Source: Clostridia bacterium
Lineage (GTDB): Bacteria > Bacillota > Clostridia > TANB77 > CAG-508
Length of the DNA stretch: 64,000 nt
NCBI GenBank assembly: GCA_022794615.1
Contig: JAAWFD010000006.1
Span: forward strand, 1,837-65,836
Reading direction: 5' to 3'
The notes beneath the pieces were generated by a model, which was not told the origin of the DNA, did no database searches, and saw only the letters and a list, made by a program, of their open reading frames with translations. The position numbers and the translations under genes were made by a program. Positions 236 to 7,663 of this stretch are shown here, piece after piece (within the stretch, counting starts at the first letter, position 1; each line of letters opens with the position of its first letter).

Positions 236-3200
236 ATGGAAAATAGGGAAGTTTATGGATTAACAAATCCACAAAAAAGTATATGGGCAACAGAGCAATT
301 CTTTATGGGAACGGATGTAAATAATATAGCAGCAACATTAACAATAAGACAGGATGTAGATTTAGAAATATTGGAAAAGGCAATTAATGCATTCTTGAAA
401 AATAACAAAAGTTTTGGACTAAGATTCAAAATGCAAGAAGGAAAGTTAGTACAATATTTTACAGAAATACAAGATACAAAATTTGAAGTATTACATCTAA
501 AAGATAAAAAAGAATTAAAAGAAGTTGCTACAGGATTATCACAAGAAGTATTTAATATAGAAGAGGAAAGTCTATTCAAATATAAATTATATAAATTAGA
601 TAATGGATATGGCGGATTTATTATAATAGCACACCATATTATTTCTGATGCAGGAACATTCTCATTAATGGGAACAGAGATAGTAGATAATTATTCAAAA
701 TTACAAAAAAACGAGAATATACAAATAAAAGAATATTCATATGAAGATTATATAAAAGACGAAAAGGAATATGAAAATGGAAGCAAATTTATAAAAGATA
801 AAGAATATTGGAACGAAGTATTTAAAGATGTTCCAGAAGTAGCAACAATACCAAGTGTAAAAAATAAAGCTAATACATATGAAGAGGGGAAATCATTAAG
901 AGAAGAATTTGTATTAAATCAAGAAACTTTAATTAAAATATCAGAATTTTGTAAGAAGAATAAGATTTCTAGTTTTAATTTCTTTATGGCAGTATATTCT
1001 ATATACTTAAGCAGAGTAAGCAATTTAAAAGATTTTGTAATAGGCACACCTATTTTAAACAGGACAAATTTTAAAGAAAAACATACAACAGGAATGTTTA
1101 TTAATACAGCACCATTGCGTGTGAAAATAGAAGAAAACTGCGATTTCATAACTTGTGCAAAACAAATTGCACAAAGTTCTTTAAGCATGCTTAGATATCA
1201 AAAATATCCATATCAAATGTTACTAGAAGATTTAAGAAGGAAGGATAGTTCAATTCCAGTATTATTTGATGTAATGTTATCATATCAAGTTACTAAAGCA
1301 AATGATAGAACGTTAGAGATACCTTATGAAGTAGAATGGTTACCTTCAAATACTATTTCAGATAGTATATATATACACTTACATGATAATGATGATAATG
1401 GTACTTTAAATGTTGCATATGACTATCAAATACAGAAGTATTCAAAAGGTGATATAGATAATATTCATAAAAGAATTTTACATATTATTAATCAAGTTTT
1501 AAATAACGAGAATTGTTTAGAAAAGGATATTGAGATTGTTACAGAAGAGGAAAAAAATAAGATTCTTTATGAGTTTAATAATACTTATACAGATTACCCA
1601 AGAGATAAAACAATTGTTGATTTATTCGAGAATCAAGTGGAAAAAACTCCTGATAATATTGCTGTAGTGTGTGGTGATAAGAAGCTAACTTATAAAGAAC
1701 TAAACGAGAGAGCTAATGGGTTAGCAAATTATTTAGTGGAGCAAGGTATACAAAAAGGAGAAGCAATAGCAACTATATTGGATAGAAATATAGAATTGAT
1801 AATATGTATGTTGGCTATTATAAAAGCAGGAGGAGTATATTTGCCTATATCTACAGAATTTCCAAAAGAAAGAATAGAATACATAATAAATGATAGTAAA
1901 TCTAAAATAATATTAACTTCGCAGAATATAAAATTGGAAAAGGAAGATATAAAGATAGTAAATATACAAAACTTCAACTATGATAATTATAATAAAAATA
2001 ATATAAAGTTAGATATTAATGCACTAGATATATTATATATTATTTATACATCGGGTTCTACAGGAAAGCCAAAAGGTGTAAAGCTATCAAATAAAAATCT
2101 AAATAATTTTGTACATGCATTTACTTATTATTTTGAAGGAATAAATGAAGAAGACAGATGTTTAGCTTCAACTAATATTGCATTTGATGTTAGCATTTTT
2201 GAATTTTTTATAACATTATTAAATGGTGCATCACTATATTTATATGAAGAAAATTCGATTACAGATATTTTTAAGTATTGTAATAATATTGTGAAAAATA
2301 AGATAACATTATTATACATTCCTCCTAATATTTTAAATGATGTATATAAAATACTATCTACAAAAGATAAAATAAAAATGTCTAAGCTTTTAATTGGAGT
2401 AGAACCAATTAAAAGCAGTGTAATAAAAAAATATTATAAATTAAATCCAAATATGAAAATCATTAATGCATATGGACCAACAGAAACAACGATATGCACA
2501 ACAGCTAATATATTAAATAAAGAAGATATTGAACAGGATACTATTATTTCGATAGGAAAGCCAATATGTAATAGTAAGTTATTAATATTGGATAAGAATT
2601 TTCAAATTTCTCCAATAGGTGTGCAAGGAGAACTATATGTTATGGGAGATGGAGTTGGAAATGGTTACTTAAACAATGATGCTAAAACAAAATCAAGTTT
2701 TGTTAGAATAAACAACTATAATCTAGATTTAGTAGCATATAAAACAGGGGATATAGTTAAGTGGAATCACAATGGTAATATCAGTTTTATAGGTAGAGAA
2801 GATAATCAAGTAAAAATAAGCGGACACAGAATTGAATTAGGAGAAATAGAAAATTGTATTTATCAATTTCCAAATATAGAAAAAGTAGTAGCAAATATAG
2901 ACAATAATAATAAAATTATAGCATATTACATAGCAAAAGAAATGATAAAAGTAAACGATTTAAAAATATTTATGAAAGAAAAGTTACCAACATATTTAAT
3001 ACCTAATTATTTTATGCAATTAGATCAATTTAAATTAACTTCAAATGGGAAAATCGATAGAAAGGCGCTACCAACACCTAAAACCGAAAATAATGTAATA
3101 AAAGTTAATCCTAAAAATAAAACAGAAAAGATATTGAAAAACATCTATGAAAAAATATTGAAACAAGATGATATTAGTACAGCATCAAACTTTTTTGAAT

Positions 3201-7663: not shown

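Follow-up and report, generated by a model that had tools for sequence, protein, structure and literature searches.

A reductase-terminated nonribosomal peptide synthetase gene and an adjoining 7TM-PAS histidine kinase gene in a Clostridia bacterium

Results

The stretch of DNA analysed here, which we call the window, comprises 64,000 nucleotides (nt) from a Clostridia bacterium (assembly GCA_022794615.1, contig JAAWFD010000006.1, positions 1,837 to 65,836 of the forward strand), with a GC content of about 27%. We focus on a nonribosomal peptide synthetase (NRPS) gene at 236..7663 (+) and on the histidine kinase gene that follows it at 7677..9485 (+). The synthetase open reading frame, at 221/236..7663 (+), is intact and gives a product of 2475 residues; its ATG at 236 sits behind the purine-rich ribosome-binding site GAAAGGAAAAAG. 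The exact protein is deposited as MCI8699848.1, from a metagenome-assembled genome (MAG) labelled 'Clostridia bacterium', and a 98%-identical relative occurs in a MAG labelled 'uncultured Clostridium sp.'. Since the window starts only 235 nt upstream of the synthetase gene, we read the upstream context from this 98% relative (L001/L008 among our locus handles).

Pfam assigns to the product two domains each of the Condensation, AMP-binding and PP-binding families, followed by a terminal NAD_binding_4/Epimerase domain, that is, the order C-A-T-C-A-T-R (condensation, adenylation, carrier, reductase). The single open reading frame with two modules and a reductase, which a first-pass annotation had described from the letters alone, is thus borne out, and the strings quoted there are all present: the N-terminal YGLTNPQKSIWATEQFF, FDVSIFE (residues 650-656, in A1), FDACTFE (residues 1687-1693, in A2), GATGFLG, and YVYTK as the instance of YxxxK. 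The first condensation domain, C1, spans 236..1594 (+), or residues 1-453, as placed by Pfam, motif and trees, and its HHIISDA at 632-652 (residues 133-139) keeps both histidines and the aspartate. There follow on the same strand the adenylation domain A1 (1598..3070, from Pfam and the 1AMU frame), the carrier T1 (3134..3316, from Pfam and motif), the condensation domain C2 (3365..4705, from its match to TycC6, 2JGP, and from trees), the adenylation domain A2 (4736..6199, from Pfam and code reading), the carrier T2 (6236..6430 with approximate limits, from a second PP-binding stretch and motif) and a thioester reductase, R, of the short-chain dehydrogenase/reductase (SDR) type (6539..7660, from Pfam, structure alignments and motifs). 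The GGDS serines of both carriers, at residues 993 and 2027, are intact.

The first-pass annotation had called this synthetase stand-alone and unusually minimal, and the kinase gene is absent from it. That description has to be given up, since the synthetase gene opens a conserved cassette in which the kinase gene comes second. Sequence inspection of the window shows a spacer of 13 nt, AGGGAGGTAACAA, at 7664..7676 (+), which holds the ribosome-binding site of the kinase, AGGGAGG. The kinase itself has 602 residues with the Pfam architecture HisKA_7TM-PAS-HisKA-HATPase_c. Its seven-transmembrane (7TM) sensor covers roughly residues 1-230 (7677-8366), with seven hydrophobic segments within residues 7-219 and a HisKA_7TM match at E = 1.2e-31; the PAS domain covers roughly residues 231-350, and the kinase core carries the H-box GGIAHNLKTPIMS with the phospho-acceptor His374 (8796-8798). 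No promoter- or terminator-like site was found between the two genes. We conclude that 236-9485 is, as predicted from its sequence, a co-transcribed two-gene operon, and translation of the kinase is probably coupled to that of the NRPS.

The pairing is not particular to the window. Among homologues with downstream sequence the kinase lies directly 3' of the synthetase in 13 of 13, over an identity range of 34-98% and from one to three modules. It is present next to the closest relative (98% identity to the NRPS), to three two-module relatives at 57-63%, to two-module relatives at 41-47%, some of them in different neighbourhoods, to three-module versions at 38-42% and to one-module C-A-T-R versions at 34-35%. 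Over 77 loci the median gap between synthetase and kinase is 13 nt, and the kinase stays with the synthetase even where the neighbourhood differs wholly, as in L016, in L017 and in the window itself. The reverse test started from an alignment of eight kinases, which led to 316 metagenome relatives, of which 80 were kept and 68 had at least 1.5 kb of sequence upstream. In 66 of these 68 the end of an NRPS R domain lies less than 400 nt 5' of the kinase, and the remaining two show a fragmented R match together with a C1 match about 7.5 kb upstream, so that an R domain is probably linked in all 68. Many of the 316 relatives lie on contigs titled 'human gut metagenome', and one cassette relative comes from a roe-deer caecum MAG.

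The same kinase-linked cassette occurs with one-module C-A-T-R or three-module C-A-T-C-A-T-C-A-T-R synthetases (L004 at 9998-17419, L006, L096/L097, L017, L098 and L099), and thus peptide length would vary from one to three residues across the clade. We considered and rejected the idea that L004 and L006 represent a split NRPS: by Pfam the upstream reading frame of 1474 residues is PolC, and the synthetase is a single C-A-T-R module. The N-terminal C domain of the three-module L099 is broken up, with a 136-residue fragment (5256-5666) separate from a reading frame with a truncated start (6001-15780), reflecting either a frameshift, and so pseudogenisation, or an assembly error. L099 also has an AMP-binding ligase gene directly upstream on the opposite strand.

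What lies beyond the kinase is also conserved in most relatives. In 56 of 72 loci the 3 kb that lie 3' of the kinase encode a regulator with REC and HD-GYP domains and the motif HDIGK...HHERYDGKGYP. Among NCBIfam models this regulator comes closest to a NosR-family phosphodiesterase of cyclic diguanylate (c-di-GMP), with a score below the cut-off of that family. At 65-88% identity it is far more conserved than kinase or synthetase. It lacks a DNA-binding domain, which makes it improbable that the two-component system simply controls transcription of the synthetase gene. The corresponding position in the window is filled by two reading frames, 9589-10563 (324 residues) and 10654-11592 (312 residues), neither with a Pfam or NCBIfam match; the second is cut to 136 residues in the 98% relative L008. 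A Pfam scan of about 50 window reading frames, which was not exhaustive, found no response regulator.

We now turn to the relation between what the synthetase is predicted to make and what the kinase carries in its sensor. The comparison covers 47 distinct two-module cassettes, hence 1081 pairs, in which the window is one allele and which bear many different A-domain codes. In all 43 pairs with identical A codes the sensor distance is at most 0.026, while in all 1020 pairs with at least three code differences it is at least 0.196. If we consider only the 53 pairs whose kinase cores are less than 10% different, the sensor distance exceeds 0.3 in 10 of 10 pairs with differing codes and in 0 of the 43 others. 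With alleles delimited at a threshold of 15%, 27 sensor alleles stand opposite 28 code pairs, an almost one-to-one correspondence of sensor and A-domain code. In none of the 1081 pairs do A2, R and the sensor come apart; for C1, A1 and the kinase core such decoupling is seen.

When sensor and codes were compared in a partial Mantel test with the kinase core controlled, the correlation was significant (r = 0.59); we regard the Mantel tests as superseded by the analysis of three near-isogenic pairs of cassettes, L030/L069, L085/L076 and L056/L050. Nucleotide identity profiles of these pairs show flanks that are 98-100% identical and, between them, a variable block of about 58-65% identity. The block begins at A1 or C2/A2, and its other edge, 600-900 nt inside the kinase gene in each of the three pairs, coincides with the end of the 7TM region. 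The sensor half of the kinase is inherited as one unit with A2-T2-R.

As for the chemistry of the synthetase, C1 precedes the first A domain with no carrier upstream of it, and neither the window nor the conserved cassette contains a second NRPS gene. With 327 bits against the LCL domain TycC6 (2JGP) and an intact HHIISDG, C2 is an ordinary LCL elongation domain. C1 by comparison is strongly divergent, with a best solved-structure match of 90 bits (again TycC6 LCL) and a score of only about 133 bits when it is compared with C2. Solved-structure matches cannot be used for typing: TycC6 LCL also comes top for an unverified SrfAA starter sequence. Nor could PDB 8F7F, titled 'surfactin synthetase', serve as a starter reference, as it scores about 41-44 bits against that unverified sequence. 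We rely on neighbour-joining trees of 177 non-redundant C domains from NRPS homologues, with the starter domain of RzmA (7C1K), CDA-C1 (4JN3) and TycC6 (2JGP) added from PDB alignments as references. C1 falls in a clade of 55 C domains, every one N-terminal in its protein, and in 99 of 100 bootstraps this clade contains neither TycC6 nor any of the 114 internal C domains. Its signature is HHxxxD[A/S] instead of HHxxxDG. C1 is a starter-position domain, clearly separate in the trees from the elongation C domains.

Thus the starter character that the first-pass annotation had read from the N-terminus of C1 stands as regards its HHxxxD and its place among N-terminal domains, and the string on which that reading leaned does not carry it, YGLTNPQKSIWATEQFF being a generic C1 core motif that is found in TycC6 as well. 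The identity of C1 across its 55 non-redundant homologues is 31-67%, and it is nearly invariant between cassettes whose downstream modules have been swapped; this conservation despite module swaps argues for purifying selection. One could still imagine that C1 is vestigial or has no donor, and that a free dipeptide aldehyde is released and cyclises to a dihydropyrazinone or pyrazinone, as with AusA, which is the best characterised outcome for A-T-C-A-T-R enzymes (PMC8210680); HHxxxDA in place of the canonical HHxxxDG would fit such a loss of function. We consider this very improbable, given the retained histidines and aspartate, the conservation just described, and the score of the NRPS on the AusA equivalog model of NCBIfam (NF047350), which at 1623 bits stays below the cut-off of 2500. 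With this score and its extra N-terminal C domain the NRPS is not an AusA equivalog. An N-acylated product would be barred from forming a pyrazinone because N-acylation blocks the amine, and the pyrazinone that had been put forward as an expected product would accordingly drop out.

The A-domain specificity codes, whose extraction the first-pass annotation had suggested, were read by aligning the domains with a hidden Markov model to the GrsA frame, which is 100% identical to 1AMU residues 231-526; applied to control proteins, the same reading gave back the canonical Phe, Ser, Orn, Thr and Gly codes. The code of A1 is DVFYLGAICK, a hydrophobic pocket, and the best single-domain solved relative of A1 is GrsA-PheA at 382 bits. 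For A2 the code is DAFFLGVTFK, which by comparison with published codes we take to be of Ile/Val type.

At the end of the protein, the motifs expected of an SDR-type reductase are all in place: GATGFLG at residues 2107-2113, YVYTK at residues 2273-2277 and a threonine in HISTMSV. R matches the T-R didomain Mru_0351 (PCP-R, 6VTJ) at 204.7 bits, the R domain of AusA at 139.8 and that of the alcohol-forming MxaA at 95.7. Both 6VTJ and AusA-R align with R at the Rossmann motif and at the Thr/Tyr/Lys triad, and R looks redox-competent. The first-pass annotation had named, as grounds for abandoning its reading, a C1 that clusters with elongation domains or lacks catalytic residues and a terminal domain without an NAD(P)H site; since C1 lies outside the elongation clade with its catalytic HHxxxD kept, and since R has the NAD(P)H-binding Rossmann motif and appears redox-competent, neither was found. 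Reductive release, as it had been proposed, is supported by the motif, the triad and the likeness to AusA-R, and the choice between aldehyde and alcohol goes beyond what the sequence can decide. SDR-type R domains yield either product with no sequence rule to separate the two (PMC8024701). A four-electron reduction to an N-acyl dipeptide alcohol, for which the significant match to MxaA-R could also be cited, nevertheless seems to us improbable, as the nearest solved R relative with a known product is the aldehyde-forming AusA-R and the characterised gut relatives are reported as aldehydes (PMC12327764; PMC8210680).

The sequence upstream of the synthetase offers a few candidate control elements. 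A consensus match to a sigma-70-like promoter, TTTGCA-17-TATAAT with an upstream TG, lies at 175..203 (+), 33 nt before the NRPS ATG; such matches are not enriched relative to shuffled sequence. Further 5' are three direct repeats of TTTGTAAAA (+) at 100-108, 121-129 and 142-150, with a spacing of 21 nt, a candidate regulator site that is kept in the 98% relative L001 and has no counterpart in more distant homologues. Exact Spo0A heptamers (TGTCGAA/TTCGACA) occur in 5 of 37 non-redundant upstream regions (L010, L015, L016, L038 and L052), compared with about 0.56 expected. We rejected Spo0A boxes as part of the explanation, as they are a minority feature and none lies 5' of the NRPS in the window. 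Across the whole window Rfam finds no c-di-GMP riboswitch.

Just upstream of the synthetase, and divergent from it, an HtrA-like protease gene (Trypsin_2-PDZ) is found in 11 of the 17 loci with enough sequence, for example at 8006-9148 (-) in L001, and also in L010, L012, L013, L015, L098 and L099. The arrangement could reflect vertical synteny, or it could have a bearing on a peptide-aldehyde product. The window contains a second HtrA-like gene at 47829-49073 (-). The two acyl-handling genes to which the first-pass annotation had drawn attention, a 4HBT thioesterase at 15598-16032 and an AMP-binding acyl-CoA ligase at 17108-18805, are where it placed them; neither is conserved beside homologues, both occurring only in the lineage of the window, and we reject the speculative link to the NRPS. 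A search of the window for MbtH, a type II thioesterase and an exporter, which was not exhaustive, found none. The remainder of the window is housekeeping in character (pyrimidine biosynthesis, pheST, LexA, GerA, MetRS, RecJ, RuvC, ScpB). Rfam places a T-box leader (103.6 bits) at 24394-24654, 5' of pheS/pheT (25206-28685), and a 6S/SsrS RNA gene (75.1 bits) at 34334-34528, and the window scan gives a spore germination protein of the GerA family at 36943-38577 (-), which indicates a spore-forming host.

Discussion

Our analysis suggests, with a probability that we would put at roughly 0.55, that the operon encodes an N-acyl dipeptide aldehyde synthetase together with a 7TM-PAS kinase whose sensor is matched to the product, probably as its receptor. 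In such a scheme C1 would N-acylate the first residue with acyl-CoA or acyl-ACP drawn from primary metabolism; the conserved part of the cassette includes no acyl-activating gene dedicated to this step. A1 would select a hydrophobic first amino acid, C2 would append the Ile/Val-type residue chosen by A2, and R would use NAD(P)H to release the acyl-dipeptidyl thioester, most likely as an N-acyl dipeptide aldehyde, an alcohol being the other possibility. The kinase sensor would be fitted to this lipopeptide, and the signal would pass in most relatives to the adjacent REC-HD-GYP protein, presumably a c-di-GMP phosphodiesterase by type; in the window the regulator is not adjacent. The acyl donor, the preference for aldehyde over alcohol, the identities of the residues and the relation of ligand to receptor are the parts of this scheme that we infer.

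A number of observations weigh against this reading. We know of no published specificity code that matches DVFYLGAICK, the code of A1. In the window, a motif search by regular expression combined with Pfam on about 50 reading frames, again not exhaustive, found no phosphopantetheinyl transferase, and there are no REC-HD-GYP, Tex or GdpP homologues in its 64 kb, of which the missing HD-GYP protein is the one that matters here. The clade of C1 groups with the proven starters RzmA and CDA-C1 in 36 of 100 bootstraps, and in 89-90 of 100 only after adding the unverified SrfAA sequence, so that the predicted tie of C1 to the classical lipo-initiation clade is weakly resolved. The extent of reduction by an R domain cannot be read from its sequence (PMC8024701). 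As regards the co-variation, the mosaic pattern goes back to about 3-5 independent recombination events, and the partial Mantel signal is lost (r = -0.07) once the R-domain distance, rather than the kinase core, is controlled. A fast-evolving sensor lying beside R could also have been co-transferred neutrally, because crossovers need conserved sequence.

How would these data look if the kinase had nothing to do with the product? The product could be a secreted inhibitor of host or bacterial proteases, with the kinase sensing some other cue and linked to the synthetase by co-regulation and neutral hitch-hiking. The literature assigns protease inhibition to the known gut family (PMC12327764; PMC8210680), a hydrophobic C-terminal residue of Ile/Val type would fit a protease P1 pocket, and the divergent HtrA-like protease gene could be read in the same light. 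The lost Mantel signal fits as well, and much of the synteny around the cassette (PolC, HtrA, Tex, GdpP, L9, DnaB) looks vertically inherited. Hitch-hiking, however, sits badly with the retention of the kinase through complete changes of neighbourhood, with a variable block whose downstream edge meets one and the same domain junction in each of three independent pairs, and with the lack of a single A2/R-sensor recombinant while C1, A1 and the kinase core recombine away. We thus regard an inhibitor with an unrelated kinase as somewhat unlikely, and prefer a sensor matched to the lipopeptide.

It is useful to set the cassette beside known systems. Guo et al. (Cell, 2017) reportedly described gut-commensal Clostridia NRPSs for dipeptide aldehydes and pyrazinones, and Schneider and Balskus (Tetrahedron, 2018) are said to have treated ruminopeptin, a predicted N-acyl dipeptide aldehyde. 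Gut commensal NRPSs make dipeptide aldehydes, some of them N-acylated (PMC8210680; PMC12327764), and the architectural match to this family that the first-pass annotation had drawn agrees with that literature. The likeness lies in the order (C-)A-T-C-A-T-R, in predicted reductive release and in predicted hydrophobic residues; the difference is the obligatory 7TM kinase, with or without the HD-GYP regulator, that co-diversifies with the synthetase here. The full-text literature that we searched contains no description of a link from such synthetases to a kinase or an HD-GYP protein, which is no proof of novelty, and the HisKA_7TM domain is scarcely mentioned in searchable literature. AusA/PznA of Staphylococcus aureus is likewise dimodular with a terminal aldehyde-type R whose catalytic residues align; it differs in having no N-terminal C domain, so that its free amine cyclises to a pyrazinone. 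To our knowledge AusA has no kinase partner. Mru_0351 of Methanobrevibacter ruminantium M1 (6VTJ/6VTZ), the best solved T-R relative, is also R-terminated and from a gut or rumen organism, and differs in being archaeal with more modules (PMC8024701).

On the signalling side the closest parallels are agrBDCA of staphylococci and clostridia and comQXPA of Bacillus, in which a signal-producing gene likewise stands beside a polytopic membrane histidine kinase and signal and sensor alleles correspond one-to-one. The hypervariable regions of agrBDC and comQXP share the layout that we see in relatives of the window, namely a block made up of the signal-specifying part and the sensor half and bounded by conserved sequence. 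The differences are that a non-ribosomal product of reductive release takes the place of the ribosomal peptide as putative signal, that signalling here is predicted, and that most relatives of the window carry a REC-HD-GYP protein where those systems have an adjacent DNA-binding response regulator. In this last respect the cassette resembles the Rpf/DSF system of Xanthomonas (RpfF, RpfC, RpfG), where a synthase for a lipophilic molecule, a membrane kinase and a REC-HD-GYP protein are clustered, as they are in 56 of 72 relatives here. It differs from Rpf/DSF in the type of synthase, in a kinase that is not a hybrid, and in the HD-GYP protein that is missing from the window.

The synthetase-kinase cassette with its pherotype-like co-variation appears to be new, while the chemistry is of a known kind. 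Few biosynthetic genes are as widespread in gut Clostridia as those for reductase-terminated NRPSs, whose products are known as inhibitors of host proteases. The present clade is hard-wired to a membrane sensor kinase, with peptide length and composition that vary by allele and a sensor half that swaps together with the specificity region. The kinase linkage, the allelic diversification and the joint swapping of the sensor thus lead to a testable hypothesis, that lipopeptide aldehydes are self-recognised signals, and natural pairs of alleles are available for testing self-recognition. Tentatively, and at rather less than even odds, we propose that the synthetase and the first 230 or so codons of the kinase form a co-diversifying pherotype locus, and that N-acyl peptide aldehydes of one to three residues serve as strain-specific quorum or kin signals in gut Clostridia, read by the 7TM kinase. 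Were this so, most lineages would relay the signal to a REC-HD-GYP protein that controls c-di-GMP, and the inhibition of host proteases would be secondary rather than the native role of these molecules. Should the signal hypothesis prove wrong, the enzyme would still join the class of N-acyl dipeptide aldehyde synthetases, with an A1 code of its own that lacks a match.

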